Source: an uncultured Conexibacteraceae bacterium
GTDB taxonomy: Bacteria; Actinomycetota; Thermoleophilia; Solirubrobacterales; 70-9
Assembly (NCBI GenBank): GCA_964464285.1
Contig: CAYXFL010000001.1
Location: 46,897 to 110,896 of the forward strand
DNA: 64,000 bases
Direction of reading: 5' to 3'
Each line of letters opens with the position of its first letter. Position 1 is the first letter of the stretch. Shown here in pieces: positions 14,165 to 53,349 of this stretch. A model generated the notes under the pieces. That model searched no databases and had not been told where the DNA came from. It worked only from the letters and a program-made list of their open reading frames with translations. Made by a program: the position numbers and the translations under genes.

Positions 14165-15031
14165 GTGGACCTCGAGGTGGTGATCGTCAGCCACGGCGCC
14201 GAAGCGCTGCTGCGCCGCACCCTGCGCTCGCTCGCCGAGCAGCCGCCGGCGACGGCGGCGATGCGGGTCAGCGTGGTCGACAGCGGCAGCCCCGACGGCA
14301 CCCCGGACATGGTCGAGCGCGAGTTCGGAGAGGTGCGGCTGCTGCGCCGCGCCAACATCGGCTTCTCGGCCGCCAACAACGCCGTCCTGCGCGACAGCGA
14401 GGCCGACGCGGTGCTGCTGCTCAACCCCGACACCGAGGTCTACGCGGGCGCCCTCGACGCGGCGCTGGCGCGGCTCGCGGTCGACCCGCGGATCGGCATG
14501 GTCGGGGTGAAGCTGGTGACCGAGTCGGGCGAGCTCGACCACGCCTGCAAGCGCTCCTTCCCCACCCCGCTCGCCGCCCTCGCCCACTTCACCGGGATCG
14601 GCCGCGGCGCCGACGCGCCGGGGGCGCTGAGCCAGTACCGGGCGACCGCGCTCGGCGACGACGAGCCCGGCGAGGTCGACGCGGTCAACGGCGCCTTCAT
14701 GCTCTGCCGGGCCGAGGCGGTGCGCGAGGTCGGCCTGCTCGACGAGGGCTACTGGCTCTACATGGAGGACCTCGACTGGTGCCACCGCTTCTGGGACGCC
14801 GGCTGGAAGGTCTTCTACGAGCCGGCCGGCACCGTCCTGCACGTCAAGGGCGGCTCCAGCGGTGGCCGCCGGGCGCTGCGCCAGGAGGTCGCCTTCCACC
14901 GCGGCATGGGCCGCTTCTACCGCCGCTTCGACGCCCCCGGGCACAACCCCCTGCTGAACGCCGCGGTCTATGCCGGGATCGGCGCCAAACTCGCCACCAG
15001 CCTCGCGATCAGCGCCACCCGCCGGGGGTAG
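14165..15031 (+). CDS. GT2 glycosyltransferase (WbbL/rhamnosyltransferase-like)
   Basis: VVIVSHG..., VVDSGSPDGT, NIGFSAANN, LLLNPD and YMEDLDWCHR are typical of the GT-A/GT2 fold. Confidence 0.8.
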   Translation: MDLEVVIVSHGAEALLRRTLRSLAEQPPATAAMRVSVVDSGSPDGTPDMVEREFGEVRLLRRANIGFSAANNAVLRDSEADAVLLLNPDTEVYAGALDAALARLAVDPRIGMVGVKLVTESGELDHACKRSFPTPLAALAHFTGIGRGADAPGALSQYRATALGDDEPGEVDAVNGAFMLCRAEAVREVGLLDEGYWLYMEDLDWCHRFWDAGWKVFYEPAGTVLHVKGGSSGGRRALRQEVAFHRGMGRFYRRFDAPGHNPLLNAAVYAGIGAKLATSLAISATRRG

Positions 15032-15041
15032 GCCGGGGCGC

Positions 15042-15081
15042 CTATCGAGTTATGCACCTATGGGCATGCATAACTCGATAG
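15042..15081. repeat. AT-rich perfect 15-bp inverted repeat (possible bidirectional terminator or protein-binding site)
   Basis: CTATCGAGTTATGCA (15042-15056) and TGCATAACTCGATAG (15067-15081) flank a 10-nt spacer. The repeat lies between convergent stops at 15031 and 15098, has no T-tract, and is conspicuously AT-rich for this DNA. Confidence 0.5.
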
Positions 15082-15097
15082 CCCGCCTGAGCCGGGC

Positions 15098-16699
15098 CTA
15101 CGGTGTCTCCGGCGGGTGGCGGGTGATCGCGGAGGAGCGGCCCTGGGTGGCGAGGGTCCAGCGCGAGCGGCGGGTGAAGATCGGGCCGGTCTTGACGCGG
15201 TCGGTCCTGCGGACGAGCAGGAAGCAGGCGAGGGCGCCGAGCAGGGCGATCCCGCCGGCGGCGAAGTAGGTGACCTGGAAGGCGACCACGTGGGCATCGA
15301 TCACGGTCGGGACGATCGTGTCGGCGAGCTGACTCTCCGGCAGGTGTTTGATCCCCGACTGCTCGGCTTCGATGATGACGTCGCGAGCCGCCGCTTCCTG
15401 GTCGGGGGTCGGGTGCAGGCCGGCGGAGGCGATTTTGTCGCGGATGTGGCCGAAGTTGACGCCGAGCTCGACCGCGGTCAGGATCGCGATCCCGAAGGCG
15501 CCGCCGAACTGCTCGGAGGTGTTGATCATCCCCGAGGCCTCGCCGCCGTCCTCCGGCGGCACCGCGGTCAGCCCGGTCGGGTCGTTGACGGTGAGCACGA
15601 TGCCAAGGCCGAGGCCCTGCAGCAGCAGGCCGGGAATCAGCGCGAGCGCGCTCTCCTGGGTGACCGAGACGGCCAGCACGACGCCGGACGCGGCGAGCAC
15701 GAGGAAGCCGGCGACCAGCGGCCAGCGGCCGCCGAAGCGGTCGAAGGCACGGCCGGCCAGCGGGCCGGCGAGGATGATCGGGATCGTCGCCGGGATCAGC
15801 GCGATCCCGGCGGTCGCCGGCGAGACGCCGACCACGAGCAGGAGGAAGAACGGGGTGAGGAAGCCGAGCCCGAGCTCGACCATCCCGGCGAGGAACTGGC
15901 TGATGTTGGCGGCGAGGAAGTTCTCGTGGCGCAGGAGCCGGAACTGGATCATCGGGTTCTTCGCCCGGCGCTCGATCACGACGAAGACCGGGAAGAGCAG
16001 GACGCCGACGACGATCGGGACCACCGTCTGCGGTTCGCCCCAGCCTTCGGTCGCCCCCTGGCTGAGCCCGAAGACGAGCGCGCCGATCGCCAGCGCGAAG
16101 GTCGTGACCCCTGGCAGGTCGAGGTCGCGGGGCGCGCCGGGGTCGGGGTCCAGGCGCGGGGTCGCGCGCAGGGTGAGGAAGATCGCGAGCAGCGCCAGCG
16201 GCACGTTGACGAGGAAGACGAGGCGCCAGTCGATCGAGGTGAGCAGGCCGCCGAGCACCGGCCCGAGCGCGGCGAAGAAGGCCGAGGCGCCGGCCAGGAT
16301 CCCCAGCGCCTGGCCCTTCTTCTCGGCCGGGAAGACGGCGCTGACGATCGCCAGCGCGGTCGGCATCATCAGCGCCGCCCCGGCGCCCTGGAAGGCGCGG
16401 GCGGCGATCGCGAACGGCATGTCGGGCGCCGCCCCCATCGCCGTGGTCGCGACGGCGAACAGGACCGCGCCCCAGAGGAAGACGCGGCGCAGCCCGAAGA
16501 GGTCGCCGAGCCGGCCGCCGAAGACCATCAGCGCCGCCAGCGGCAGGATGTTGGCGGTCATCAGCCACTGCCCCTCGGAGACGCCGCCGCCGAGGTCGTG
16601 GATCGCGTCGGGGCTGGCCAGCGGCACGGCCGTCTGGTCGACCAGGATCATCGAGCTCGACAGCGTCATCGCCGCCAGCGTGATCCTGGCCTTGTTCAT
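15098..16699 (-). CDS. MFS transporter, DHA2 (14-TMS, EmrB/QacA-like)
   Basis: GGRLGDLFGLRRVF (MFS motif A-like), about 14 hydrophobic segments, 533 aa. It starts 4 nt after the rmlC stop. Confidence 0.8.
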   Translation of the reverse strand: MNKARITLAAMTLSSSMILVDQTAVPLASPDAIHDLGGGVSEGQWLMTANILPLAALMVFGGRLGDLFGLRRVFLWGAVLFAVATTAMGAAPDMPFAIAARAFQGAGAALMMPTALAIVSAVFPAEKKGQALGILAGASAFFAALGPVLGGLLTSIDWRLVFLVNVPLALLAIFLTLRATPRLDPDPGAPRDLDLPGVTTFALAIGALVFGLSQGATEGWGEPQTVVPIVVGVLLFPVFVVIERRAKNPMIQFRLLRHENFLAANISQFLAGMVELGLGFLTPFFLLLVVGVSPATAGIALIPATIPIILAGPLAGRAFDRFGGRWPLVAGFLVLAASGVVLAVSVTQESALALIPGLLLQGLGLGIVLTVNDPTGLTAVPPEDGGEASGMINTSEQFGGAFGIAILTAVELGVNFGHIRDKIASAGLHPTPDQEAAARDVIIEAEQSGIKHLPESQLADTIVPTVIDAHVVAFQVTYFAAGGIALLGALACFLLVRRTDRVKTGPIFTRRSRWTLATQGRSSAITRHPPETP

Positions 16700-16703
16700 C
16701 AGC

Positions 16704-17252
16704 TCACCAGGGGAGGGAGTCGGCGATCTCGGAGAGCTTCGGGGCGCTCTGGTCGCGGGCCGAGAGCTGCGGGTCGGCGACGCCCCAATCGACCCCGACC
16801 TCGGGGTCGTCCCAGGCGATCCCGGCCTCGGTCGTCGGGTCGTAGACGCTGGAGACCAGGTAGCAGACGTCGGCCACCTCGCTGAGCACGACGAAGCCGT
16901 GCGCGAACCCGACCGGGATGAAGAGCTGGCGGTGGCGCTCGTCGTCGAGCACGTGCCCCTCCCACTGCCCGTAGGTGGGTGAGTCGCGGCGCAGGTCGAC
17001 GGCGACGTCGAAGATCTGCCCGCGCGCGCAGCGCAGGAGCTTTGCCTGGCCCGGCTCGGTCTGGAAGTGCAGGCCGCGCAGGATGCCCTGGCCCGAGCGC
17101 GAGTGGTTGTGCTGGACGAACTCGGGCTCGACCCCCTGCGCCGCCCAGGCCTCGTGGCTGTAGGTCTCGACGAAGAAGCCGCGCTCGTCGCCGTGGACCT
17201 GGGGCTCGAGCAGGACGACCCCGTCGAGCTTGGTCGCGAGCCGCTCGGGCAT
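16704..17252 (-). CDS. rmlC: dTDP-4-dehydrorhamnose 3,5-epimerase
   Basis: DERGFFVETY, GILRGLHFQ, KLLRCARGQIFDVAVDLR and FIPVGFAHGF are canonical RmlC cupin motifs. Confidence 0.93.
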   Translation of the reverse strand: MPERLATKLDGVVLLEPQVHGDERGFFVETYSHEAWAAQGVEPEFVQHNHSRSGQGILRGLHFQTEPGQAKLLRCARGQIFDVAVDLRRDSPTYGQWEGHVLDDERHRQLFIPVGFAHGFVVLSEVADVCYLVSSVYDPTTEAGIAWDDPEVGVDWGVADPQLSARDQSAPKLSEIADSLPW

Positions 17253-17258: not shown

Positions 17259-18245
17259 CTAGCCCCCCAGCGCCTTCCCGTACTGCTTTTCGTAGTACTC
17301 CCGGTACTCGCCGGAGCGGATCGGCCCCCACCAGTCCTCGTTGTCGCGGTACCAGGCGACGGTTTTCTCGAGCCCCTCGGCGAAGTGGACCTGGGCCTCC
17401 CAGCCGAGCTCGTCGCGCAGCTTCTGCGAGGAGAGCGAGTAGCGGCGGTCGTGGCCGGGGCGGTCCTTGACGTACTCGATCAGCGACTCGTCGGCGCCGG
17501 TCAGCTCGATCACCCGCTGCACCACCTCGAGGTTCTCGCACTCGTCGGGCCCGCCGACGTTGTAGGCCTCGCCGGGGCGGCCGTTCATCAGCACCGCGTG
17601 GATGCCGCGGCAGAAGTCCTCGACGTAGAGCCAGTTGCGGACCTGCTTGCCGTCGCCGTAGATCGGCAGCGAGTCGCCGTGGATCGCGTTCAGGACCATC
17701 AGCGGGATCAGCTTCTCCGGGTACTGGCGCGGGCCGTAGTTGTTCGAGCCGCGCACGATCGAGGCCTCGATCCCGTAGGTGTGGACGTGGGCGGAGACGA
17801 GCAGGTCGCCGGCCGCCTTGGTCGCCGAGTAGGGCGAGGAGGGGTCGAGCGGCGAGGTCTCGGTGAACGAGCCCGACTCGATCGAGCCGTAGACCTCGTC
17901 GGTGGAGACCTGCAGGTAGCGGGAGACGCCGAGCTCGCGGGCGGCGTCGAGCAGGGTGCCGGTGCCGATCACGTGGGTGCGGGCGAAGGCGTCCTGGTCC
18001 TCGATCGAGCGGTCGACGTGCGACTCGGCGGCGAAGTTGACGACCGCGTCGACGCCCTGCATCGCTTCGCGGACGACGGCCGGGTTCTCGATCCCGCCCT
18101 CGATCAGTGTGGTGCCCTCGGGCAGGTTCTCGCGCCGGCCGGCGTAGGTGAGCTTGTCGAGGACGACGACGTCGTGCTCGGTGCCGGCGATGCGGACGTA
18201 GGTCGAGCCGATGAAACCGGCGGCGCCGGTCACCAGGAGCTTCAT
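17259..18245 (-). CDS. rmlB: dTDP-glucose 4,6-dehydratase
   Basis: MKLLVTGAAGFIGS, STDEVYG, YSATKAAGD and DRPGHDRRY. The start at 18245 overlaps the rmlD stop (ATGA). Confidence 0.93.
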   Translation of the reverse strand: MKLLVTGAAGFIGSTYVRIAGTEHDVVVLDKLTYAGRRENLPEGTTLIEGGIENPAVVREAMQGVDAVVNFAAESHVDRSIEDQDAFARTHVIGTGTLLDAARELGVSRYLQVSTDEVYGSIESGSFTETSPLDPSSPYSATKAAGDLLVSAHVHTYGIEASIVRGSNNYGPRQYPEKLIPLMVLNAIHGDSLPIYGDGKQVRNWLYVEDFCRGIHAVLMNGRPGEAYNVGGPDECENLEVVQRVIELTGADESLIEYVKDRPGHDRRYSLSSQKLRDELGWEAQVHFAEGLEKTVAWYRDNEDWWGPIRSGEYREYYEKQYGKALGG

Positions 18246-19090
18246 GAGGTTTCCTCCCCTTTGCGTTGGGCCAGATAGCCGGCCAGCCCGTCCTGCCAGG
18301 AGGGCAGCCGGATCGCGTGCTCGCGCTGGCTGGTCAGGGCCGAGAACGGCGGACGTGCCGCCGGCCGGCCGAATTCCTCGGTCGAGACCGAGAGGACTTT
18401 GCAGTCGACCTTCGCCTGCTCGAAGATCTCGCGCGCGAACTCGTACCAGGAGCACTGCCCGGCGGCGGCCATGTGGTAGATCCCGAACTCGGGTCCCTCG
18501 ATCAGCCGCACGATCCCGTAGGCGAGATGCCAGGTGTAGGTCGGCGAGCCGATCTGGTCGCGCACGACCAGGACCTCGCTCTGGCCGTCGGCCAGCCGCA
18601 GCATCGTCTCGACGAAGTTGTTGCCGCCGGCGCCGAAGAGGCCGGCCGAGCGGACCACGAAGTGGCGGCTGTTGGCGGTCGCGGTCGCCTCCTCGCCGGC
18701 CAGCTTGGTGCGGCCGTAGGCGGAGAGCGGGGCGGGCTGGTCGCTCTCGACGTAGGGCTCGCCCTTGGCCCCGTCGAAGACGTAGTCGGTGGAGACGTAG
18801 ACGACGCTGGCGCCGACCGCGGCGGCCGCCGCGGCGACGTTGCCGGCGCCGGCGCCGTTGACCGCGAGCGCCTCGGGCTCGGCCGTCTCGGCCCCGTCGA
18901 CGTCGGTCCAGGCGGCGCTGTTGATCACCACGTCGGGCCGCTCGAGCTCGATCTTGCGGCTGACCTGCGCGGCGTCGGCGACGTCGAGCTCGGTGCGCCC
19001 GAACCCGACCACCTCGTGGCCGGCGTTGCCGGCGGCGAGCATCAGGTCACGGCCGAGCATCCCGGCGGCCCCGGTGACGAGGAGCTTCAC
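18242..19090 (-). CDS. rmlD: dTDP-4-dehydrorhamnose reductase
   Basis: MKLLVTGAAGMLG, STDYVFDG, YGRTKLAGE and VRDQIGSPTY are typical RmlD motifs. Confidence 0.92.
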   Translation of the reverse strand: MKLLVTGAAGMLGRDLMLAAGNAGHEVVGFGRTELDVADAAQVSRKIELERPDVVINSAAWTDVDGAETAEPEALAVNGAGAGNVAAAAAAVGASVVYVSTDYVFDGAKGEPYVESDQPAPLSAYGRTKLAGEEATATANSRHFVVRSAGLFGAGGNNFVETMLRLADGQSEVLVVRDQIGSPTYTWHLAYGIVRLIEGPEFGIYHMAAAGQCSWYEFAREIFEQAKVDCKVLSVSTEEFGRPAARPPFSALTSQREHAIRLPSWQDGLAGYLAQRKGEETS

Positions 19091-19150: not shown

Positions 19151-20422
19151 TCAAGCGACGAAGGACCAGAGCGCGAACTGGGCCGTGAGCGCCCCCATCG
19201 CCGCGGCGGAGACGGCAACCGCGGCCGTCGTCGCCCGGCGCCGCTCGCAGACCACCGCCAGCCAGATGAAGACCGGGAAGAGCACGGCGACGAAGCGCGG
19301 CACCGACCACAGCGGCGTGCCCGGCGCCTGCGACATCAGCAGCGGCAGCAGCGAGACGAGGACCCAGGCTCCGTAGGCGGCCGGGAGGATGCGCAGCGCC
19401 CCGACCCCGCCGACGACGGCGAAGGCGAAGAACGCAAGCCCGATCAGGTTGAGGTAGGCGTGAGTTCCCGCGGCGGTGCCCTCGGCGAGGTCGCCGATCG
19501 CGATCCCCGCCTCCCGCACCCCGGCCCAGGCGCCGTTCAGGGGGTCGACGGTCTGGCGGCCGAACACCTCCTGCGCGTCGAGCCAGGCACTCGCGTCGCC
19601 GACCGCGAAGTGCAGGTAGAGGCTGAAGGCGAGCAGCCCGAGCGGCGCCAGCGCCAGCCAGGCCAGGTCGGGGCGCAGCGGGTAGCGCGGCCGCCAGCCG
19701 CGCCGCGGGCCCGGCTCACGATCGGAGCGCGGCCCGTACAGGTAGAGCAGGGCGACCGGGACGACGAGCAGCAGGCCCGGCGCGCGGACCGCCGAGGCGA
19801 GCGCGAGGACGAGGCCCGCCACCGCCCAGTGGCCGGTTCGGGCGGCCAGGAAGGCGGCGACCGCGAGCAGCAGGAAGAGCGACTCGGAGTAGGGGATGCC
19901 GTAGAAGAACGCGGCCGGGAAGAAGGCGAGCAGGAGCAGCGCCGGCCGCGCGTAGCGGGCGCCGAGCTCGATCGCGATCAGCCGGTGCAGCAGCGTGAGC
20001 GCGGCGAAGAAGCAGGCGAGCGAGACCGCGTAGGCGACGATCAAGACCAGGGCGGGGCTGGCCGCGAAGCCGCTCAGCAGGTGCACCGCGCCGGGGAAGA
20101 GCGGGAAGAAGGCCGCCCGCCGGTCCTCCGCCGGCAGGCCGGGCTGGCCTTCCGCGTAGCCGTCGACGGCGATCGTCAGGTAGTGCAGGCTGTCCCACTT
20201 CGCCAGCGGCGCGAAGGTGACGTCGAGCAGGTTGGTCGCCGGCCAGGCGGCGAACGGGTGCGCGAGCTGGTCGTAGACCGGCTCGGCGGCAAACGGCAGG
20301 GCGGCGAGGACGACCCAGGCGGCGACCGCGAAGACGACCAGGCGGCTGGTCCAGAAGACCCGCCAGGCTTCCCCGGCGCTCTCGCGCCAGTCCCAGCTGA
20401 TCCTCCCCCACCAGCCCTTCAT
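19151..20422 (-). CDS. polytopic membrane glycosyltransferase, PIG-V/GT76-like (GT-C fold)
   Basis: WDSLHYLTIAVDGY ... AFFPLFP resembles the PIG-V mannosyltransferase signature. About 10 TM segments. It sits between rmlA and rmlD. Confidence 0.6.
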   Translation of the reverse strand: MKGWWGRISWDWRESAGEAWRVFWTSRLVVFAVAAWVVLAALPFAAEPVYDQLAHPFAAWPATNLLDVTFAPLAKWDSLHYLTIAVDGYAEGQPGLPAEDRRAAFFPLFPGAVHLLSGFAASPALVLIVAYAVSLACFFAALTLLHRLIAIELGARYARPALLLLAFFPAAFFYGIPYSESLFLLLAVAAFLAARTGHWAVAGLVLALASAVRAPGLLLVVPVALLYLYGPRSDREPGPRRGWRPRYPLRPDLAWLALAPLGLLAFSLYLHFAVGDASAWLDAQEVFGRQTVDPLNGAWAGVREAGIAIGDLAEGTAAGTHAYLNLIGLAFFAFAVVGGVGALRILPAAYGAWVLVSLLPLLMSQAPGTPLWSVPRFVAVLFPVFIWLAVVCERRRATTAAVAVSAAAMGALTAQFALWSFVA

Positions 20423-20440: not shown

Positions 20441-21520
20441 CTAGACGATTTTGATCTCGGAGCGGTCGCCGACCAGCAGGCGGAGGGTTTTCGGAACCCC
20501 GTCGGAGCGGGTCAGCTTCACGTTGCGACCCAGCAGGCTGGCCTCCATCCGGGTGCCGAGGTCCTCGACCACCGAGCCGCTGAGGATGATCGAGTGCTCG
20601 ACCTCGGAGCGGCGCACGTGGACGCCCTCGCCGATCGAGGTGTAGGGGCCGATGTAGGCGTCCTCGATCTCGGCGCCGGCGCCGATCACGGCGGGGCCGC
20701 GGACGACCGAGCGGTGCAGCTTGGCGCCGGGCTCGAGCACGACCCGGCCCTCGACCCGGGAGTCCTCGTCGACCTCGCCCTCGACCGAGGTCTGCAGCTC
20801 CTCGAGGACCAGGCGGTTGGCCTCGAGCATGTCGGCGAGCTGGCCGGTGTCCTTCCACCAGCCGCGCACCACCTCCGACTGGACCGGGCGCCGGTCGTCG
20901 ATCAGCTTCTGGATCGCCTCGGTGATCTCGAGCTCGCCGCGCCAGGAGGGCTCCAGCGAGCGGGCGGCCTCGAAGATCGAGGTGTTGAAGAGGTAGACGC
21001 CCACCAGGGCGAGGTTCGAGGGCGGGTCTTTGGGCTTCTCGATCAGCCGCACGATCCCGCCGTTGCCGTCGAGCTCGGCGACGCCGTAGGACTGCGGGTC
21101 GTCGACCGGGGTGAGCAGGATCAGCGCCTCCGGCTCGTCGGCGCGGAAGGTCGAGACGAGGCCGCGCAGGCCGTCGCGCAGGAGGTTGTCGCCGAGGTAC
21201 ATGACGAACGGCGAGGAGCCGATGAACGGCTCCGCGGTCAGCACCGCGTGGGCGAGCCCGGCCGGCTTGTCCTGGACGATGTAGGTGATCTCGGCGCCGA
21301 ACTGGGAGCCGTCGCCGGCCGCCTCGCGGATCTCCTCGCCGGTCTCCGGGGCGATGATGATCCCGATCTCCTTGACGCCCGCGTCGACCAGCGCCTCGAT
21401 CCCGTAAAACAGCACGGGCTTGTTGGCGACGGGCACGAGCTGCTTCGCCGAGGTGTGGGTGATGGGGCGCAGGCGGGTGCCGGCGCCGCCGGAGAGGATC
21501 AGTCCCTTCAGGGGCTCCAT
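20441..21520 (-). CDS. rmlA: glucose-1-phosphate thymidylyltransferase (long form with C-terminal LbH domain)
   Basis: This is the C-terminal 359 aa of the 669-aa track ORF. It has the GLILSGGAGTRLRPITHTSAKQLVPVANKP nucleotidyltransferase signature, followed by a hexapeptide-repeat-like tail. Confidence 0.9.
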   Translation of the reverse strand: MEPLKGLILSGGAGTRLRPITHTSAKQLVPVANKPVLFYGIEALVDAGVKEIGIIIAPETGEEIREAAGDGSQFGAEITYIVQDKPAGLAHAVLTAEPFIGSSPFVMYLGDNLLRDGLRGLVSTFRADEPEALILLTPVDDPQSYGVAELDGNGGIVRLIEKPKDPPSNLALVGVYLFNTSIFEAARSLEPSWRGELEITEAIQKLIDDRRPVQSEVVRGWWKDTGQLADMLEANRLVLEELQTSVEGEVDEDSRVEGRVVLEPGAKLHRSVVRGPAVIGAGAEIEDAYIGPYTSIGEGVHVRRSEVEHSIILSGSVVEDLGTRMEASLLGRNVKLTRSDGVPKTLRLLVGDRSEIKIV

Positions 21521-46354: not shown

Positions 46355-47072
46355 GCCCGCCGACCAGGGCGAGGCCGGCGACCAGCGGCGAGAGCAGCAG
46401 CGCCGCCAGCCGCCGCGGGCCGAACCCGCCCCCGGGCGGGAGCAGCGCGGGCAGCAGCAGCGCCATCGCCTTGTAGGCGGCGACGGTGAGCTCGTTGCCG
46501 CGCGCGGTCACCACCGGGTCGCCGAAGCCGTTGCCCTCCAGCATCGTGCGCAGGCTCGAGGGGGTGAAACGCCAGTAGTCGTGTGGCACGTAGTGCCAGC
46601 GGGCGGCGAAGGGCACGGTCAGGATCAGCCGCCCGCCCGGACGCAGCACGCGCCGCGCCTCGGCGAGGAAGGCGGACGGTTCCGGCACGTGCTCGAGCGT
46701 CTCGGTCGCCAGCACCAGGTCGACCGCCGCGTCCTCGACCGGCCAGGTCTCGCCCTCGAAATACTCGGTGTCGGGCACGTCGTAGCCGAACGCCTCGCGG
46801 GCCAGGACCGAGTCGATCGCCCGGTAGCTGGCTGTCGCCGGGACCAGCGGCCGGTAAGGCTGGGCACCGGCGCCGACGTCGAGCACGACCCCGCGCGCGT
46901 CGCCCAGCTCGCACCTCAGATCGGCCCAGATCGACGCCGCCTGCAGGTCGAAGCGGCGGCGCGCAGCCGCGGTCAGGCGCCCACGCAGGCCCCGCCCGCC
47001 GTGGAAGCCGGGTGGCTGCCAGGGCTCGGCGCTGCGGTGGACGAGGTTCTCGCGCTGGGCCCGCTCAGGCAC
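46245..47072 (-). CDS. class I SAM-dependent methyltransferase with C-terminal hydrophobic tail
   Basis: VLDVGAGAQPY (motif I), LVLATETLEHV and LRPGGRLILTVP. GTG at 47072 overlaps the upstream stop (GTGCCTGA). Confidence 0.7.
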   Translation of the reverse strand: MPERAQRENLVHRSAEPWQPPGFHGGRGLRGRLTAAARRRFDLQAASIWADLRCELGDARGVVLDVGAGAQPYRPLVPATASYRAIDSVLAREAFGYDVPDTEYFEGETWPVEDAAVDLVLATETLEHVPEPSAFLAEARRVLRPGGRLILTVPFAARWHYVPHDYWRFTPSSLRTMLEGNGFGDPVVTARGNELTVAAYKAMALLLPALLPPGGGFGPRRLAALLLSPLVAGLALVGGLSLRRDGSVDCLGWTATATAVGQPPRGPAPVGPLAG

Positions 47073-47997
47073 GTACGCCCCAGGCGAGCATGTTGCCGAC
47101 GGGGACGGTGAGCGGGCGGGCGGCCAGCCCGCTGCGCTCCAGTCCCCTCGACAAACCGCCGGCCAGCCGCTCGGGGAGCGGGGCCAACCTCGCCCAGTAA
47201 CGCACCGGGTAACGGTTGCGGATCGGCTCCTGGCCGACCTCGCGAAGTTCGCCGCGCCGCAGGAGCTCGGCGATGCTCTGGGGGGAAAAGAGCTGCATGT
47301 GCTCGACGTCCATGATCGGCGACCGCATACCCAGGGTGCGGTTGATCCATGCACGGCGGTTGTGGCAGACGATCGCCAGGATCCCGCCCGGCTTCAGCAG
47401 CTCGGCCGCGGCGGCGACGAAGGCGGCCGGGTCGGGCACGTGCTCGATCGTCTGGAAGCAGGTGATCAGGCTCAGCGTGCCGGGCTCGCGCAGGCCGGGG
47501 CGGAAGACGTCGTGCTCGATCAGCGGCGCGATCTCCGGCGCCGCCTCTTCGATCGGCGCGGTCGAGGGCTCGACCCCGCCGACCGCGGTGAAGCCGAGCC
47601 GCAGCAGCTCGGCGAGGAAGGCGCCCTCGCCGGTGCCGACGTCGATCGCGCCGTCGCGGTCGGGCAGGCGCCCCAGCAGCGGGGCGAGCGCGTCGGCGTA
47701 GGTGCGGGCCGCGAAGCGGGCCTCCTCGCCGCTGTCGAAGGCGGCCGCCTCATAGGCACCGGCCAGCGCCTCGGGGGCGGGCAGCGGGCTCGCGTAGGCG
47801 AGGTCGCAGTCGGGGCAGCGGACCAGCCGCAGGCGCATCCGCTCGGGCCGCTTGCGGGAGGCGAAGGCGTGCTCGCCGAGCGCCTCGAGGTCGAGCCGCT
47901 GGGTCGCGAAGAGGTCGGCGTCGTCGCGCGAGCCGCAGATCGGGCAGGCGCGCTCGGTCATCTGCCCGAGCAGGTCGGAGGCGGGGCCGGCGCTCAC
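47065..47997 (-). CDS. SAM-dependent methyltransferase with N-terminal Cys4 zinc-ribbon
   Basis: CPICGS...CPDCDL zinc ribbon, followed by IDVGTGEGAFL (motif I), ITCFQTIEHV and LKPGGILAIV. Confidence 0.75.
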   Translation of the reverse strand: MSAGPASDLLGQMTERACPICGSRDDADLFATQRLDLEALGEHAFASRKRPERMRLRLVRCPDCDLAYASPLPAPEALAGAYEAAAFDSGEEARFAARTYADALAPLLGRLPDRDGAIDVGTGEGAFLAELLRLGFTAVGGVEPSTAPIEEAAPEIAPLIEHDVFRPGLREPGTLSLITCFQTIEHVPDPAAFVAAAAELLKPGGILAIVCHNRRAWINRTLGMRSPIMDVEHMQLFSPQSIAELLRRGELREVGQEPIRNRYPVRYWARLAPLPERLAGGLSRGLERSGLAARPLTVPVGNMLAWGVRA

Positions 47998-48086: not shown

Positions 48087-49058
48087 GTGAGGGCGGTCGT
48101 CACCGGCGCCGGCGGGTTCGTCGGCGCCAACCTCGCCTCCTCCCTGCTGGCGGCCGGCCACGAGGTGGTCGCCTGGACCCACCCGGGCGGCTCGGAGTGG
48201 CGCCTCGACCACCTGCGCGGCGAGCTCGAGGTGGCCCCGGTCGAACTGCTCGACCCGGAGGCGATCGAGGCCGGCGTGAAGAGCGCCCGACCCGACTGGG
48301 TCTTCCACCTCGCCGCCCACGGCGCCTACTCCTGGCAGCGCGACGCGGAGCGGATCCTGCAGACCAACCTGGTCTCCACCGTCCACCTGCTGGCGGCCTG
48401 CCAGCGCCACGGCTTCGAGTCGTTCGTCAACGCCGGGTCCTCCTCGGAGTACGGGTTCCAGGACCACGCTCCGAAGGAGTCCGAGCTGCCCGAACCGAAC
48501 AGCGACTACGCGGTGATGAAGGCGGCCGCGACCCTGCACTGCCGCTTCGTCGCCCAGCGCGACGACGTCCACGCCGTCACCCTGCGCCTCTACTCCGTCT
48601 ACGGCCCCTGGGAGGAGCCCGGCCGGCTGATGCCGACCCTGGTCGCCCGCGGCCTCGAGGGCGGGCTGCCGCCGCTCGTCTCCCCCGACACCCCGCGCGA
48701 CTACATCAGCGTGCGCGACACCGACCGCGCCTTCCTGCAGGCCGCCGAACGCACCGACCTCGAGCGCGGCTCCGTCTTCAACATCGGTTCCGGCCGCGAA
48801 ACGAAGCTGCGCGAGGTGGTCGAGGTGTGCCGCGCCGAGATGGGCGTCGAGGCGGAGCCCGAGTGGGGCACCGAGCCGCCCCGCGCCTGGGATGCCGCGG
48901 TCTGGGTCGCCGACCCGGCCCGCGCCCGCGAGAGCCTCGGCTGGCAGGCCGAGGACGACCTCGCGACCGGCTTCGGGGCGCTGGCCGAGTGGCTGCGCGA
49001 GCACCGAGAGCTCTGGGGCCGCTACGAGATCGGGACGGCGGGCGCGGTCGGCGGCTAG
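48087..49058 (+). CDS. NAD-dependent sugar epimerase/dehydratase (extended SDR)
   Basis: VVTGAGGFVGANL, GSSSEYG and YAVMKAAAT (YxxxK). GTG start. Confidence 0.8.
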   Translation: MRAVVTGAGGFVGANLASSLLAAGHEVVAWTHPGGSEWRLDHLRGELEVAPVELLDPEAIEAGVKSARPDWVFHLAAHGAYSWQRDAERILQTNLVSTVHLLAACQRHGFESFVNAGSSSEYGFQDHAPKESELPEPNSDYAVMKAAATLHCRFVAQRDDVHAVTLRLYSVYGPWEEPGRLMPTLVARGLEGGLPPLVSPDTPRDYISVRDTDRAFLQAAERTDLERGSVFNIGSGRETKLREVVEVCRAEMGVEAEPEWGTEPPRAWDAAVWVADPARARESLGWQAEDDLATGFGALAEWLREHRELWGRYEIGTAGAVGG

Positions 49059-50245
49059 CGGCGGCGCAGGCGGGTGGTGAGGGCGCGCAGCGGCGCCGTC
49101 ACCCGCCAGCTGAAGGTGTTCTCGTAGCTGTGGCGCAGCTTGCCCTCGACCACCCGGCCGTAGGCAGCCCGCTGCTCCTCGGCCCGCTCCTCGGCGTCGA
49201 GGAGCTCGTCGCGCAGCTTCACGTTCTCGTGGCTGAGCGCGTGGACTTCGGCCCGCGCCCGCCACTCCAGGCGCACCAGGCGCGCCATCTCGTCGAGCGC
49301 CTCGCGCGAGCGCGCGGGCGGCGATCCGAGCCGGCCCAGCAGCCCGACCAGCTCCTGCGCGTGGACGTTGGCGCGGTGGTGGGCGATCACGAGGTCGTGG
49401 TTGACCGGCCCCATCGCGGCCGAGTAGCCGCCCAGGTCCTCGGCCAGGCGCTCGCCGTCGACGATCGTGCGCCCGTTGCGGGCGGCGATCCCGTCCGCCT
49501 CGATCGCCGCGTAGCTCTCGGCGGTGACCCAGCCGTCGCCGCCGTTCCAGTCGTAGACGTAGGCGGCCCGGCCGCAGGCCATCGCCTCGAGGATCGAGCG
49601 GCCATAGCCGATCACGAGGTCGGCGTCGTTTAGGGCCGAGCGCGGGTCGCTCGACTGGCCGCCGATCCCGCCCAGCCGGACCAGCTCGATCCCGTTCGCC
49701 GCGCAGGCCCGTTCGAGCAGCGCCAGCCGGTCGGCAACCGGGGTGTTGCTGAGCAGCAGCGCCCGCCGCGGAACCTCGGACAGGGGGTTGCGCGAGGTGA
49801 AGCGCTCGGTGTCGATCGGCTGCCGCAGCCGCACCACCTCCGGCGCCATTGCCAGCGAGCGCAGCCGCGCGGCGACGCGGTCGTTGAGCGCCACCGCGAT
49901 CTGCACCGCGCCCTCGAGCTGCGGCGGCGACTGCACGTCGAAGCTCTCGCTGTGGGCGACGAAGAGCTGCGGCAGCGCCGGCAGCAGCCGCGCGAGCTGG
50001 TGGGAGACGGCGGCATCCTGGACCAGCGCCGCGTCGCACTCCGCCGGCAGCCCGGTCTCATCGACGACCACGATCCCGCGGTCGGTCGCCGGCTTCACCC
50101 CGACGCCGCCCTCGGGGGCGAAGAGGACGACCTCGTGACCGAGCCGGTCGAGCTGCTCGGCCACCGTGAGCAGGTAGGACTCGCTACCGCCTAGACCGAG
50201 ATGGCTGGTCGCGAGGACGAGCTTCACTTTTGTGAGCGTACCCAC
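49055..50245 (-). CDS. GT-B (GT4-like) glycosyltransferase with C-terminal coiled coil
   Basis: GLGGSESYLLTVAEQLDRLGHEV and GRSILEAMACGRAAYV. The C-terminus reads RLEWRARAEVHALSHENVKLRDELLDAEERAEEQ. The start is uncertain (GTG 50245 or 50227). Confidence 0.65.
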   Translation of the reverse strand: MGTLTKVKLVLATSHLGLGGSESYLLTVAEQLDRLGHEVVLFAPEGGVGVKPATDRGIVVVDETGLPAECDAALVQDAAVSHQLARLLPALPQLFVAHSESFDVQSPPQLEGAVQIAVALNDRVAARLRSLAMAPEVVRLRQPIDTERFTSRNPLSEVPRRALLLSNTPVADRLALLERACAANGIELVRLGGIGGQSSDPRSALNDADLVIGYGRSILEAMACGRAAYVYDWNGGDGWVTAESYAAIEADGIAARNGRTIVDGERLAEDLGGYSAAMGPVNHDLVIAHHRANVHAQELVGLLGRLGSPPARSREALDEMARLVRLEWRARAEVHALSHENVKLRDELLDAEERAEEQRAAYGRVVEGKLRHSYENTFSWRVTAPLRALTTRLRRR

Positions 50246-50301: not shown

Positions 50302-51945
50302 ATGCAGAGGGGGGCTGCAGCGTGCGGGGCGCTGGGGAGATACGACCCCGGACGGGTGGAGCGGATGGCCGCGCTGTGCGGCGGCGAGGCTCCGCGACCG
50401 GTGCACACGGACGAGAGCTCGATCCTCTTCCTCGACCGCGAGCCACTGCGCTGGCAGGGAGCCCGCGGCCACGGGCTCGCCTGGCTCGGCACCGACGCCT
50501 GGAACGACACCCGGCCCGACGACTGGAAGGGAGCCGCCCGGGCCGGCGCCAACGGGCTGGTGATCGAGGGGCGCAAGCGCTTCCTGCACAGCTCGGTGAG
50601 CGGCCTGGCGCCGCTCTACTGGCTCGACGACGGCGGCGCGACCTACTTCTGCTCGCGCCTGGACCCGCTGGTGCGCGCGGCCGGCCGGCGCTTCTCGCTC
50701 GACTGGGAAGCCTGGGCGGCGATCATCGCCCTGCGCTTCCCACTCGGCCAGCGCACCCCGTTCGCCGAGGTGCGGCGGCTCGAGCAGTTTGCGACCCTGG
50801 GCCGGCGCCTCGGCCGCGGCCGCTCGCGCTCGCACCGCTGGCCCTGGGCCGAGGTCGAGCCGCTCGCCGGGCTCGACGCCGCCGCCGACGCCGCCGTGGA
50901 GGGCATGCGGCAAGCGCTCGCCGGCGTTCCCGCCGGGGTCGTCTGCCCGCTCAGCGGCGGCCGCGACTCGCGGATGCTGTGCGCGATCCTCGCCGCCGAC
51001 GGGCGCGCCGGGGGAGCGATCACCGCCGCCGACGACGAGGGGGAAGCGATCGAGGAGGACCTGGCCGCGGCCGTCGCCGGCTACTACGGCCTGCCGCACG
51101 AGCGGCTCGCCGGCGCGGCCGCCGACTACCGGGCCGACTGGGAGGAGCGGGCACGAAGGGTCGAGCACCAGTTCGTCGACCACGCCTGGCTGATGCCCGC
51201 GGTGCGGCGCCTGGAAGGCGACCCGGCGCCGCTGCCCGACGGCTTCGGGATCGACATCTTCGTCCAGTCCGAGCGCCACTTCAATCCGCCCGAGGCGCTC
51301 TACGCGACGGACGGACGCGCCGCCGCCCTCGCCCTGCTCGAGGCGCTGCGCCGCTACGGCGCAACCCAGATGGCGCTCGCGCCCGAGTTCCGCGAGCCGC
51401 TGCTGGAGCGCGTCCGCGACCAGTTCCTCGCCGCGGTGCGACCGCTCGAGGGCCACCCGTCCCAGAACGTACTCTCGGTCTACGCGACCCGCTCGCGCCG
51501 CGGCGTCGGCTCCTACGCCGCCGGGCTGTGGGGCGACGGCGGCCAGGTCCTCGCCCCCGGCGCCGGCGACGAGGTCGTCTGCGCGACCCTCTCGGCCAGC
51601 CAGCGCGAAAAAGACGACGGCCGCCTCTACGAGGCGATCTTCGCCCGCATCGCCCCCGATGTCGGCCGCCTGCCCTCGACCACCAACACCGCGCGCAGCG
51701 GCCCCGCCCTGCCGCGCCGCTGGCGCTCGCAGCCGGCGCTGGAGATGCACCGCGAGCTGCTCGCCGAGGGTCCGCTGGCACCCCACCTCTCAGCCGAGCT
51801 GCGGGCCTGGCTCGAGCGGCCCGGCGGCGCCGAGCTGCCCGGCGACCTGCGGCTGGGGATGGAGGGTGTGAGCCTGTTGCACAGCTGGTGGCGGCGCTAC
51901 CGCGACCTCCTCTCCCCCACCGACGCCACCGCCCTCCGCGGCTGA
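50302..51945 (+). CDS. asparagine synthetase B-like PP-loop ATP pyrophosphatase lacking the N-terminal Cys nucleophile
   Basis: SGGRDS PP-loop at 50953-50970. The N-terminus MQRGAAACG... has no Met-Cys Ntn glutaminase start. Overall AsnB-like length. Confidence 0.65.
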   Translation: MQRGAAACGALGRYDPGRVERMAALCGGEAPRPVHTDESSILFLDREPLRWQGARGHGLAWLGTDAWNDTRPDDWKGAARAGANGLVIEGRKRFLHSSVSGLAPLYWLDDGGATYFCSRLDPLVRAAGRRFSLDWEAWAAIIALRFPLGQRTPFAEVRRLEQFATLGRRLGRGRSRSHRWPWAEVEPLAGLDAAADAAVEGMRQALAGVPAGVVCPLSGGRDSRMLCAILAADGRAGGAITAADDEGEAIEEDLAAAVAGYYGLPHERLAGAAADYRADWEERARRVEHQFVDHAWLMPAVRRLEGDPAPLPDGFGIDIFVQSERHFNPPEALYATDGRAAALALLEALRRYGATQMALAPEFREPLLERVRDQFLAAVRPLEGHPSQNVLSVYATRSRRGVGSYAAGLWGDGGQVLAPGAGDEVVCATLSASQREKDDGRLYEAIFARIAPDVGRLPSTTNTARSGPALPRRWRSQPALEMHRELLAEGPLAPHLSAELRAWLERPGGAELPGDLRLGMEGVSLLHSWWRRYRDLLSPTDATALRG

Positions 51946-51970
51946 CCGCGCGGGCGCCAAACTGTGGCGC

Positions 51971-52633
51971 ATGTCTCGACCGACGGATCGCGACGCCCCC
52001 GCCGCGCCGCTCCCGGGTGAAGCCCATCTCTGGCTCGCCGACCTCGATGCGGCGGCGGAGCCGCCGGACGGGGTGCTGAGCGCGGCCGAGCGCGAACGCG
52101 CCGCGGGAATCCGCGCGGCCGTCGACGCCCGTCGCTGGGCGACCTCGCGCTGGGCGCTGCGCGAGGTCCTCGCCCGCTACCTCGGGGTGGCGGGGAGCGC
52201 GATCGAGCTGGCCCGCGGCGAGCACGGCAAGCCGCGGCTGGCCGCCGCCCCGGCGCCGCTCGAGTTCAACCTCAGCCACTCGCACGGGCGCGTCCTGGTC
52301 GGGGTCGCCGCCGCCGGCCAGCCGCTCGGGGTCGACATCGAGCGGATCGTCCCGCGGCGCGACTTCCTCGCGCTCGCCCGCCGGGCGCTCGGCGAGGCCG
52401 AGGCCGAGGCGATCGCCGCCGCCCCGCAGGAGCGCCGCGCCGGCCTCTTCTACGCCGCCTGGACCGCCCACGAGGCGCACCTGAAGTGCGGCGGTGGCGG
52501 CTTCGGCGTCGCCGCCCCCACGGGCACGCCGGGCGCGCGGCCGGTAGACGTCGGTGACGGCTACGCGGCGGCCTTCGCGCTCGCCGCCGCCGGCGACCCG
52601 CGCGGGCGGCTCTACCGGCTCGACCTGCGCTGA
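51971..52633 (+). CDS. Sfp-type 4'-phosphopantetheinyl transferase
   Basis: HGKPRL, FNLSHSHG, GVDIERI and WTAHEAHLK are the canonical Sfp/EntD family motifs. Confidence 0.8.
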   Translation: MSRPTDRDAPAAPLPGEAHLWLADLDAAAEPPDGVLSAAERERAAGIRAAVDARRWATSRWALREVLARYLGVAGSAIELARGEHGKPRLAAAPAPLEFNLSHSHGRVLVGVAAAGQPLGVDIERIVPRRDFLALARRALGEAEAEAIAAAPQERRAGLFYAAWTAHEAHLKCGGGGFGVAAPTGTPGARPVDVGDGYAAAFALAAAGDPRGRLYRLDLR

Positions 52634-53349
52634 GCGAGGCGCAGCCGCGGCACCCGCCAGATCGCCTCGGCGACGATCGCGGCGTTCATCTTCGAGCTGC
52701 CGCGCTGGCGTTCGTGAAAGGTGATCGGCACCTCGACCACGCGGCCGCCCAGCCGGATCGCGCGGTAGGTCATCTCGACCTGGAAGGCGTAGCCCTTCGA
52801 GTCGACCGCGTCGAGGTCGATCGCCTCCAGCAGCTCGCGGCGGAAGCACTTGAAGCCGCCGGTCAGGTCGCGCACCCCGACCCCGAGCACCGCCCGGGCG
52901 TAGACGCTGCCGCCGCGGCTGACCGCACGCCGCAGCGGCCCCCAGTCGCCGATCCCGCCGCCGGGCACGTAGCGCGAGCCGATCGCCAGGTCGGCCTCGG
53001 CGCTGGCCGCGAGCAGCCGCGGCAGGTCGGCCGGGTCGTGGGAGAAGTCGGCGTCCATCTCCAGCACCAGGCCGGCTCCGGCGGCGAGCGCGTGGCGGAA
53101 GCCGGCGATGTAGGCGGGGCCGAGCCCTTCCTTGCGCGGCCGGTGCAGGACCTCGATCGCCGGCTCGGCGGCGGCCAGCCGGTCGGCGAGCTCGCCGGTG
53201 CCGTCGGGGGATCCGTCGTCGACGACCAGCACGCGGGCGCCGGCAGGCAGGTGGGAAATCGCCGCCGCCAGCAGCAACTCCAGGTTGTCTGCCTCGTTGT
53301 AGGTGGGAAGGACCAACCAGGCAGGTCCGCGAGCGCCGACGTCGGACAT
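52612..53349 (-). CDS. ppm1: polyprenol-phosphate mannose synthase (Ppm1/DPM1-type GT2)
   Basis: VLPTYNEADNL, VVDDGSPDGT, GLGPAYIAGF, EMDADFSHDP, TGGFKCFRRE and GYAFQVEMT. Confidence 0.85.
   Translation of the reverse strand: MSDVGARGPAWLVLPTYNEADNLELLLAAAISHLPAGARVLVVDDGSPDGTGELADRLAAAEPAIEVLHRPRKEGLGPAYIAGFRHALAAGAGLVLEMDADFSHDPADLPRLLAASAEADLAIGSRYVPGGGIGDWGPLRRAVSRGGSVYARAVLGVGVRDLTGGFKCFRRELLEAIDLDAVDSKGYAFQVEMTYRAIRLGGRVVEVPITFHERQRGSSKMNAAIVAEAIWRVPRLRLAQRRSSR

Follow-up and report, generated by a model that had tools for sequence, protein, structure and literature searches.

The question raised by this locus is what is made by a 39 kb stretch of DNA in which dTDP-rhamnose genes, soluble glycosyltransferases, an ABC exporter and five large membrane proteins stand side by side, and whether these genes belong together at all. 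The stretch occupies positions 14165-53349 of 64 kb of DNA from an uncultured Conexibacteraceae bacterium (contig CAYXFL010000001.1); that whole 64 kb is called the window below, and all coordinates refer to it unless another contig is named. The stretch is a real gene cluster, common to many uncultured soil Solirubrobacterales. It is read here, with moderate confidence, as a conserved cell-envelope glycan locus, in which an ABC-transporter-dependent pathway would be followed by decoration outside the cell. Across the order the locus keeps a fixed core, and its decoration modules vary between relatives like serotype determinants.

The G+C content of the window is about 72%, so that raw lists of its open reading frames (ORFs) are rich in artefacts. 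Genes were called by third-position GC (GC3), and the calls were cross-checked against those on identical metagenomic contigs (L001, L004). Proteins of the window were searched for domains with Pfam and NCBIfam and compared with PDB by phmmer and by profile hmmsearch, and family alignments were compared with each other by hhalign. Synteny was studied in a sample of 80 species-level loci around homologues of one membrane protein, 33202 (these proteins are named by their first coordinate), taken with 10 kb on either side; all window proteins were mapped onto them, and a count out of 80 means presence inside those flanks. All 80 loci, and the nearest homologues, came from metagenome-assembled genomes labelled Solirubrobacterales, Conexibacteraceae, Thermoleophilia, or by the higher ranks Actinomycetes and Actinomycetota.

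A shared gene order emerged from the 80 loci. From a variable edge it runs SDR2-SDR1-DPMS-like GT2-MT3-33202-double GT2-(MT2)-28940-Wzm-Wzt-(MT1)-GT2b and, beyond GT2b, (GT4-GT2 fusion, coiled-coil ORF)-GT2-RmlA-RmlD-RmlB-RmlC-(MFS)-GT2a, where SDR stands for short-chain dehydrogenase/reductase, MT for methyltransferase and MFS for a major facilitator superfamily permease. The double GT2 was present in 71 of the 80, Wzm in 70, Wzt in 68, 28940 in 60, GT2b in 59 and MT3 in 49; the DPMS-like GT2 (GT2dpm) was found in 41, RmlA and SDR2 in 34 each, and SDR1 in 32. The sequence-only reading had taken the whole stretch for one 'super-locus', nearly uninterrupted by unrelated genes. This holds for the core, which was syntenic in most of the 80 relatives and did not split into independent islands, but it is too broad for 19151, 35684 and a block of transketolase, GtrB-type GT2 and 41529 genes, which are accessory and vary between lineages, as does a VapBC pair; the 41529 block occurred in some of the 80 loci only. 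Almost all of the items that it listed were found in place, yet the permease, the coiled-coil ORF, the VapBC pair and a phosphopantetheinyl transferase (PPTase) also lie inside the stretch.

The genes for rhamnose, for the soluble glycosyltransferases and for export, with the three methyltransferases of the shared gene order, are as follows.

14165-15031, plus strand: GT2a glycosyltransferase (Pfam Glycos_transf_2, 56 bits)
16704-17252, minus strand: RmlC, dTDP-4-dehydrorhamnose 3,5-epimerase (Pfam dTDP_sugar_isom, 233 bits)
17259-18245, minus strand: RmlB, dTDP-glucose 4,6-dehydratase-type SDR (Pfam GDP_Man_Dehyd and Epimerase matches from residue 71 of the long ORF; 232 bits)
18242-19090, minus strand: RmlD, dTDP-4-dehydrorhamnose reductase (Pfam RmlD_sub_bind, 311 bits)
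20441-21520, minus strand: RmlA, long form, glucose-1-phosphate thymidylyltransferase (TIGR01208 rmlA_long, 478 bits against a cut-off of 320; 359-aa call from L001)
21557-22486, plus strand: GT2 with the ninth GT2 domain, 309 aa, divergent from rmlA (GC3 0.95; 35% identical to GT2b)
22891-24816, minus strand: GT4 (GT-B) and GT2 fusion, accessory (Pfam Glyco_trans_1_4 and Glycos_transf_1 at residues 189-346, Glycos_transf_2 at residues 404-529)
24813-25820, minus strand: GT2b glycosyltransferase, core (Pfam, 86 bits; median 71% identity)
25847-26734, plus strand: S-adenosylmethionine (SAM) methyltransferase MT1 (Pfam Methyltransf_23, 34 bits; 4-bp overlap with the wzt start; 22/80)
26731-27966, plus strand: Wzt, ABC ATPase whose C-terminal domain, Wzt_C, binds carbohydrate (ABC_tran 75 bits; Wzt_C 59 bits, gathering threshold 30.4)
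27963-28817, plus strand: Wzm, ABC-2 permease (Pfam ABC2_membrane, 56 bits)
30653-31633, plus strand: SAM methyltransferase MT2 (Pfam Methyltransf_23, 50 bits; 24/80)
31638-33287, plus strand: double-GT2 glycosyltransferase, core (two Pfam Glycos_transf_2 domains; median identity 67%)
35028-35675, plus strand: SAM methyltransferase MT3, highly conserved (Pfam methyltransferase families; median 85.6% identity)
49055-50227, minus strand: probable GT-B (GT4-like) glycosyltransferase (weak Glyco_transf_4, 25.5 bits, under the gathering threshold)

All four of RmlA-D, as had been claimed, were recognised by Pfam and NCBIfam, and at the level of their families they are predicted to make dTDP-L-rhamnose. 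The start of rmlB was chosen from a 4-bp overlap with rmlD, as in the L001 gene calls, and RmlB orthologues in relatives were 86-93% identical. A 669-aa minus-strand ORF at 20441-22450 was rejected as a single gene: it consists of RmlA and of a spurious antisense extension over the real, conserved GT2 on the plus strand, and the region 20441-22486 exemplifies how long shadow ORFs conceal genes in high-GC DNA.

Nine GT2 domains were counted, in agreement with the sequence-only reading: at 14165-15031, 21557-22486, the C-terminal half of 22891-24816, 24813-25820, two in 31638-33287, and at 37937-38692, 45332-46354 and 52612-53349. Of two proposed GT-B domains, one is clear (22891-24816, N-terminal half) and the other, at 49055-50227, is weak. 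Orthologues of the GT2 at 21557-22486 were present in 53 of the 80 relatives, with a median identity of 71.5%, and the GT4-GT2 fusion in seven. GT2a is 36% identical to GT2b; in L056, L077 and L089 its orthologues (80-89% identity) lie at the end that carries the rml genes. Orthologues of the 49055 protein (about 64-67% identity) adjoin SDR2 in L012-L014. The closest PDB match of the double GT2 was the two-domain chondroitin polymerase K4CP (2z86), and this enzyme could be the polymerase of the pathway.

Wzm and Wzt were likewise borne out, by ABC2_membrane and by ABC_tran with Wzt_C, and are predicted at family level to form a polysaccharide-type ABC exporter; the NCBIfam models for TagH and for galactan Wzt/Wzm matched below their equivalog cut-offs (galactan export: 168 bits for Wzt, 51 bits for Wzm). 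Five class-I SAM methyltransferases were found, as expected, and MT1, the start of wzt lying within its end, is a candidate for the enzyme that caps the chain end.

The second half of the proposed logic depends on the five large polytopic membrane proteins.

19151-20422, minus strand: PIG-V-like putative GT-C membrane glycosyltransferase (Pfam Mannosyl_trans2, PF04188, 46.1 bits against a gathering threshold of 22.4, E 5.7e-12)
28940-30595, minus strand: m28940, polytopic membrane protein of a large unannotated family, core, candidate GT-C (conserved first-loop motifs)
33202-34935, minus strand: m33202, putative GT-C-fold membrane protein of a new sequence family, core (AlphaFold2 model and Foldseek)
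35684-37807, minus strand: m35684, large polytopic membrane protein of a rare family, accessory (about 16-18 hydrophobic segments)
41529-43499, minus strand: m41529, putative GT-C-A-fold membrane glycosyltransferase of a new sequence family (AlphaFold2 model, Foldseek and an invariant loop)

Up to five extracytoplasmic transferases had been proposed among them, one with a PIG-V-like signature and one with a DDE motif in its first loop. Both signatures are there, and three of the five are GT-C proteins by Pfam or by predicted fold, but 28940 and 35684 gave no sequence or profile match. Mutual paralogy among 41529, 33202, 28940 and 35684 was not detectable by BLASTP or by hhalign between family alignments, and hhalign gave no usable link to the PIG-V-like protein either.

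More than 561 homologues of 41529 were found, all labelled 'hypothetical', and sequence searches of Pfam, NCBIfam and PDB returned no match. Its AlphaFold2 model, made with 57 homologues, had a pLDDT of 89.3 and a pTM of 0.90. When this was compared with PDB by Foldseek, the top 23 matches were all GT-C enzymes, with DPY19 first (E 6.6e-6), followed by STT3, AglB, ArnT, AftA, PglB and Pmt4; their probabilities were 1.00, except one at 0.99, and TM-scores were 0.25-0.44. The motif Y55-D56-D57-E58-G59-T60 directly follows the first transmembrane helix (TM1) and was invariant in the 57 homologues, its loop lying between helices 25-48 and 57-69 of the model; C551 and C603 were also invariant. The model thus places 41529, at family level, among the GT-C glycosyltransferases.

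The family of 33202 is larger (more than 1249 homologues, again all 'hypothetical'), and none of the 60 members searched matched Pfam at E<=1; sequence searches of NCBIfam and PDB with 33202 were negative too. Its model (pLDDT 88.8, pTM 0.91) was most similar to ALG12 (E 4.9e-3, probability 1.00, TM-scores 0.39/0.46), with further probabilities of 0.98 for ALG9, 0.95 for ArnT and AftB, 0.90 for STT3 and 0.82 for PglB, and matches to transporters reached a probability of 0.30 or below, with TM-scores of about 0.12. Invariant residues were D134 and S163-D164-R165-P166-P167, in a long loop past helix 4, and W238-P239-K240. By this fold comparison 33202 appears to be an ALG12/ALG9-like GT-C protein, with less certainty than 41529.

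The third protein, 19151, is predicted from its Pfam family to be a PIG-V-like GT-C glycosyltransferase. It has about ten hydrophobic segments, and the match covers part of the profile (positions 47-205 of 443). Homologues were found in none of the 80 relatives within 10 kb of the 33202 homologue; rmlA and rmlD are adjacent in relatives that have both genes, and in the window 19151 separates them. It is a lineage-specific insertion between the two.

Transferases of this type would need lipid-linked sugars, for which three small GT2s are candidates; two of them are listed here with the SDRs that accompany the first, and the third stands between them and the accessory genes.

37937-38692, minus strand: GT2dpm, DPMS-like soluble GT2, candidate polyprenyl-phosphate sugar synthase (Pfam GT2; median 84.5% identity)
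39330-40403, minus strand: SDR1, CDP-tyvelose-2-epimerase-like extended SDR, core (best PDB match 1orr, E 1e-29; median 87.6% identity)
40431-41498, minus strand: SDR2, CDP-tyvelose-2-epimerase-like extended SDR, core (best PDB match 9rl0, E 4e-35, and 1orr; median 82% identity)
45332-46354, plus strand: GtrB/PgfS/ArnC-type GT2, candidate polyprenyl-phosphate sugar synthase (Pfam GT2, 97 bits; C-terminal transmembrane hairpin)
52612-53349, minus strand: Ppm1/PpgS/DPM1-like soluble GT2, candidate polyprenyl-phosphate sugar synthase (Pfam GT2, 104 bits)

The three resemble DPMS, ArnC, GtrB, PgfS and PpgS, as foreseen, and by family assignment they belong to the kind of enzyme that loads sugars on polyprenyl phosphate. 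GT2dpm was closest in PDB to the dolichyl-phosphate-mannose synthase of Pyrococcus (5mlz, E 1.5e-18), then to ArnC and GtrB, and matched, at scores well under the cut-offs, the NCBIfam models for AglJ, dolichyl-phosphate hexose transferase, PgfS and ArnC. The 45332 protein matched the PgfS and ArnC models over their full length, at 249 bits (cut-off 500) and 156 bits (cut-off 529); since both scores fall below the equivalog cut-offs, it is of the same kind as PgfS and ArnC and not an equivalog. The 52612 protein is 31% identical to GT2dpm, matched the PpgS, AglJ and ArnC models below cut-off, and had orthologues (65-78% identity) at varying places in the locus among relatives. No proteins of the locus are better conserved than GT2dpm, SDR1 and SDR2, which show 82-88% identity where 33202 shows about 59%, and this trio probably feeds the core enzyme 33202.

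The family of 28940 comprises 3808 representative clusters (50% identity) at E<=1e-3, its relatives are all named 'hypothetical', and there is no Pfam or NCBIfam model for it. The 35684 family is small (64 homologues found); it lies near 33202 in 3 of the 80 relatives, and always near the GtrB/41529/SDR2 region where it is present. A Pfam search with all members of its alignment at E<=1 gave no usable signal, and when 28940 and 35684 were compared by hhalign with the 41529, 33202 and 19151 families, no probability reached 3%. It is a serious possibility, somewhat short of an even chance, that one or both are not glycosyltransferases but a flippase for polyprenyl-phosphate sugars, a polymerase, or a ligase by which the polymer reaches its final anchor. 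Neither a flippase nor a ligase can be recognised in the window, 28940 is fixed beside Wzm in 60 of the 80 relatives, and some of its family members are fused to Wzy_C, the domain of O-antigen ligases and polymerases (P0344, among relatives P0305-P0454); for its part, 35684 has a short first loop and a number of hydrophobic segments that is unlike a typical GT-C protein. Set against this, 28940 has near-invariant residues in the first loop after TM1 (D36, W38, R44 and P55, within an FxxDxW motif and a PHNEH-like consensus) and a C-terminal domain with two invariant cysteines (C468, C547), a layout typical of a GT-C enzyme with an outside accessory domain, and another member of the family is fused to a GT2 (P0363). 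Paralogues of 28940 also occur within single loci, as would be expected of transferases with differing specificities; two were seen in one locus in several Solirubrobacterales, for example L022, L057, L061, L073 and L086.

A striking pairing of a GT-C protein with a lipid-sugar synthase is found in the accessory block. Besides 41529 and the 45332 synthase it contains the following genes, among them the split transketolase and one of the three extra extended SDRs that had been noted and are confirmed.

43549-45278, plus strand: split transketolase, N-terminal subunit at 43549-44358 and C-terminal subunit at 44355-45278 (Transketolase_N 104 bits; Transket_pyr and Transketolase_C)
46245-47997, minus strand: two SAM methyltransferases, MT4 at 46245-47072 and MT5 at 47065-47997 (Pfam; with the transketolase cassette in L009, L015 and L092)
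48087-49058, plus strand: SDR3, epimerase/dehydratase-type SDR (Pfam Epimerase, 157 bits; same cassette in L009 and L092)

NCBIfam transketolase models matched each half of the split enzyme, and the calls were as in L004. Eight contexts gave a view past the 41529 homologue (the window, L006, L007, L009, L015, L090, L091 and L092), and in all eight it stood beside an orthologue of the GtrB-type GT2 (61-84% identity) and a cassette with a thiamine-dependent enzyme. This adjacency suggests that the donor of 41529 is a polyprenyl-phosphate-linked sugar. The cassettes are of two kinds. One, in the window, L009, L015 and L092, consists of the split transketolase, methyltransferases and an SDR; the other, in L006, L007, L090 and L091, consists of a glucose-1-phosphate cytidylyltransferase, a CDP-glucose 4,6-dehydratase, RfbH, an acetolactate-synthase-like enzyme and an aldo-keto reductase. 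In L007, RfbF, RfbG and RfbH each scored above the NCBIfam equivalog cut-off and were accompanied by the acetolactate-synthase-like thiamine enzyme and the aldo-keto reductase. The two kinds are not homologous and replace each other at the same position, and the block, when present, is inserted at the same edge of the locus. In L092 (JGI 3300055048), positions 10981-12866 carry, beside the 41529 homologue, a transketolase-type cassette with a 259-aa nucleotidyltransferase and a 365-aa dehydratase-type SDR, both of which are absent from the window.

The make-up of the second kind of cassette is that of the yersiniose pathway, in which CDP-4-keto-3,6-dideoxyglucose receives a two-carbon branch from the thiamine enzyme YerE (PMC9306805). 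Swapped thiamine cassettes beside a fixed lipid-sugar synthase and a fixed GT-C enzyme suggest, from gene context, a side sugar that is a branched-chain deoxy sugar, passes through polyprenyl phosphate and varies between strains. Taken to its most specific form, 45332 would load a two-carbon-branched deoxy sugar made by the cassette on polyprenyl phosphate, 41529 would transfer it outside the cell, and a cassette swap would amount to serotype-like variation; this is put forward tentatively, and as it stands we regard it as rather unlikely. The GT2dpm/SDR1/SDR2 trio might likewise remodel a sugar once it is attached to lipid. If true, branched-chain donors linked to lipid phosphate would be a new class of GT-C substrate.

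Put together, the favoured reading of the locus is as follows. Soluble GT2 and GT4 enzymes would assemble, on a lipid carrier at the inner membrane face, a chain that contains rhamnose, and the double GT2 could be the polymerase; MT1, translationally coupled to wzt, would cap the chain, Wzt_C would recognise the cap, and the chain would be exported. Outside, GT-C enzymes would attach side branches from polyprenyl-phosphate sugars: GT2dpm and the two tyvelose-epimerase-like SDRs would probably supply 33202, and the accessory module of GtrB-type GT2, thiamine cassette and 41529 would add a strain-variable and probably branched-chain side sugar. Such a two-part logic, synthesis and export on the inside and decoration on the outside, had been proposed from the sequence and is consistent with the gene content, and the product would then be heavily branched, O-methylated and wall-linked. 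In cultured Solirubrobacter, the sugars of whole-cell hydrolysates include rhamnose, xylose, galactose and ribose (PMC10722151), and the rhamnose fits a rhamnose-containing glycan.

Several points weigh against this reading. It is we who infer the product, the acceptors and the donors of the locus. No initiating phosphoglycosyltransferase, no lipid-sugar flippase of the GtrA, SMR, MATE or Wzx type and no LCP-type ligase was recognised in the 64 kb window. The GT2s of the window resemble the rhamnosyltransferase model only weakly (28-30 bits), so that a rhamnan backbone is not shown, and no similarity of MT1 to WbdD or to any other solved structure was found in PDB. Pfam, NCBIfam, PDB profile searches and hhalign were all without a match for 28940 and 35684, and the GT-C match of 33202 is modest (best E 4.9e-3, TM-scores 0.39-0.46) and weaker than that of 41529. 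The transketolase cassette of the window has no nucleotidyltransferase of its own. Lastly, the best structural matches of 41529 include the protein glycosyltransferases DPY19, STT3, PglB and Pmt4, so that its acceptor could be a protein.

This last point leads to a different account of the stretch as a whole, in which two or more envelope pathways are merely co-located, the ABC-dependent rhamnose polymer being one of them, and the GT-C modules serve lipoglycans of the phosphatidylinositol mannoside or lipomannan type (Ppm1-like GT2, PIG-V-like enzyme, 33202) or surface proteins (41529, whose top matches comprise AglB as well as the protein glycosyltransferases just named). Phosphatidylinositol mannosides are among the lipids of cultured Solirubrobacter (PMC10722151), so that some of the GT-C and Ppm1-like genes could have a lipoglycan role, and ALG12, ALG9 and PIG-V are mannosyltransferases acting on lipid-linked acceptors. 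The position of the Ppm1-like GT2 also differs between genomes, and the 41529/GtrB/cassette block comes and goes independently of the core. We nevertheless consider separate pathways unlikely: 33202 lies between the double GT2 and the GT2dpm/SDR trio, near Wzm and Wzt, in most of the 80 genomes, the accessory block is always at the same edge of this locus when present, and structural similarity among GT-C enzymes is no predictor of the acceptor. Far less probable still is that the deoxysugar, methyltransferase and thiamine-enzyme genes are a cluster for a glycosylated natural product and not for an envelope glycan. In favour of this, a PPTase lies inside the stretch, a 2119-aa non-ribosomal peptide synthetase (NRPS) stands beside the 41529 homologue in L006, and antibiotic clusters often feature branched deoxysugars and branching enzymes that depend on thiamine. 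Against it, neither an NRPS nor a polyketide synthase is encoded in the window, the cassette always comes with a membrane-anchored GtrB-type GT2 and a GT-C protein and not with soluble GT1 natural-product glycosyltransferases, and the block lies within a Wzm/Wzt polysaccharide locus.

The remaining genes of the stretch are these.

15098-16699, minus strand: DHA2-family MFS efflux permease (Pfam MFS_1, 183 bits; TIGR00711, EmrB subfamily, 253 bits against a cut-off of 230)
22496-22915, minus strand: small coiled-coil protein (weak DivIC-like Pfam matches only)
38689-39286, minus strand: VapBC-type toxin-antitoxin pair, outside the pathway, between SDR1 and the DPMS-like GT2 (PIN domain, 39 bits)
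50302-51945, plus strand: weakly AsnB-like protein (Pfam Asn_synthase, 19 bits, under the gathering threshold; TIGR01536, 29 bits)
51971-52633, plus strand: Sfp-type 4'-phosphopantetheinyl transferase (Pfam ACPS; HetI and AcpT models below their cut-offs)

The permease gene adjoins rmlC, at the same position, in L056, L068 and L078; its use as proof of an unrelated interruption was dropped on account of this synteny. As no lipid-sugar flippase is recognisable in the locus, it is named here as a purely speculative candidate for one. The coiled-coil ORF occurred with the GT4-GT2 fusion or GT2b in 15 relatives. Upstream of the PIN toxin, a 67-aa ORF (39083-39286) is of a length and in a place that would suit a VapB-type antitoxin, and it gave no NCBIfam match; the pair was found in none of the 80 related loci, so that it looks like a recent insertion, and the local GC dips to 0.668. 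The gene for the AsnB-like enzyme of the sequence-only reading is present, but its similarity to that family is weak. The PPTase is probably unrelated to the glycan and was rejected as a pathway member: in L006 (ERZ25039485 contig_461, 3621-9980) the PPTase is separated from the 41529 homologue by a two-module NRPS of 2119 aa that includes a thioesterase, and the matching region of the window holds the weak AsnB-like and GT4-like genes. Outside the stretch, the flanks carry the following.

3638-4927, plus strand: HtaA-like protein
5002-6015, minus strand: epimerase/dehydratase-type SDR
57725-60115, minus strand: penicillin amidase
60922-63000, minus strand: WYL/WCX (PafBC-like) regulator

The surroundings of the locus on the chromosome are conserved as well: a right-flank set of penicillin amidase, PNPOx and glycoside hydrolase genes recurs beside it, whole or in part, in L009, L012, L013, L022 and L091, the amidase being present in L009 and L091.

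Members of the Solirubrobacterales abound in soil, and a limited literature search found no description of their envelope glycans beyond lists of whole-cell sugars. If the favoured reading is right, the locus would set out, for the order as a whole, the genes behind their main surface polysaccharide. It would define at least two GT-C sequence families without a Pfam or NCBIfam model, and it draws attention to a very large unannotated family of membrane proteins, the roughly 3800 clusters (at 50% identity) to which 28940 belongs. The fixed pair of GtrB-type synthase and GT-C enzyme, with its interchangeable thiamine cassettes, offers a lead towards branched sugars carried on lipid and towards surfaces that differ from strain to strain among uncultured Actinomycetota.

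How far does such a locus resemble known systems? Mycobacteria assemble arabinogalactan and lipoarabinomannan with WbbL, Wzm/Wzt galactan export, Ppm1, PpgS/Rv3779 and the Emb/Aft GT-C enzymes. The present locus belongs to the same phylum and shares a rhamnose-containing polymer (predicted here), Wzm/Wzt export, Ppm1/PpgS-like GT2s and several GT-C enzymes that would use polyprenyl-phosphate sugars, and AftA, AftB and EmbC are among the structural matches of 41529 or 33202. It differs in that its components lie in one locus and are partly strain-variable, its GT-C families are not Emb/Aft or GT87 (no Pfam match), and it carries no UbiA-type phosphoribosyltransferase, DprE1/DprE2 or galactofuranosyl genes.

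The ABC-dependent O-antigens of E. coli O8/O9a carry a terminal methyl cap that is added by WbdD and read by the C-terminal domain of Wzt. Here too Wzt_C is present above the Pfam threshold and a methyltransferase gene overlaps the wzt start, but MT1 has no detectable similarity to WbdD, it is near the core in 22 of the 80 relatives, and the capping is proposed.

The overall logic also matches that of the rhamnose-rich wall polysaccharide loci of streptococci, lactococci and enterococci, such as gac of S. pyogenes, with GacI and GacL, and SCC of S. mutans (PMC9574508; bioRxiv 10.1101/180810; PMC11754754). Common to both are dTDP-rhamnose genes, cytoplasmic assembly by GT2 and GT4 enzymes, ABC export and, as proposed here, side chains added outside by GT-C enzymes from the polyprenyl-phosphate sugars of GtrB-type GT2s, to which the PgfS match of 45332 (249 bits) corresponds. 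The phylum is another, however, and orthology was shown no further than the level of domains; where the streptococcal loci have one or two of each, the present one is predicted to have three lipid-sugar synthases and at least three GT-C enzymes, two of the GT-C families have no Pfam model, and Wzt has a Wzt_C domain. A GacH-type glycerol-phosphate transferase, a Wzx/GtrA-type flippase and an LCP gene are absent from the present locus.

Decoration by GT-C enzymes after polymerisation, outside the cell and from a polyprenyl-phosphate sugar, is also known from the pentofuranose side chains of Citrobacter youngae O1/O2, which depend on a PPPRS, a MATE flippase, a GT136 GT-C enzyme and an optional SDR epimerase; that auxiliary SDR is a precedent for changing the identity of a lipid-linked sugar (PMC11127046). 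The same decoration is proposed here, with a GT-C protein that has a C-terminal outside domain. Yet the synthases are GT2s and not UbiA-type enzymes dependent on phosphoribosyl pyrophosphate (PRPP), the SDRs are CDP-tyvelose 2-epimerase-like, and neither a UbiA-type nor a MATE protein turned up among the window genes; since the PRPP-dependent synthase and MATE flippase are absent, the locus is not a member of the three-component pentofuranose systems (PMC11127046).

The gene set of the yersiniose pathway (RfbF/G/H, YerE and the reductase YerF; PMC9306805) recurs in L006, L007, L090 and L091 beside the GtrB-type GT2 and the 41529 homologue. In Yersinia the CDP-sugar goes to cytoplasmic transferases, whereas here the cassette is paired with a polyprenyl-phosphate-type GT2 and a GT-C protein, and the window itself has instead the non-homologous split transketolase, two methyltransferases and an SDR.

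The locus departs from the known systems, then, in its larger number of decoration components, in the trio of a GT2 with two tyvelose-epimerase-like SDRs and in its link to thiamine cassettes. Its overall logic is known, from streptococci and in part from mycobacteria; its enzyme families and the thiamine-cassette link are new.

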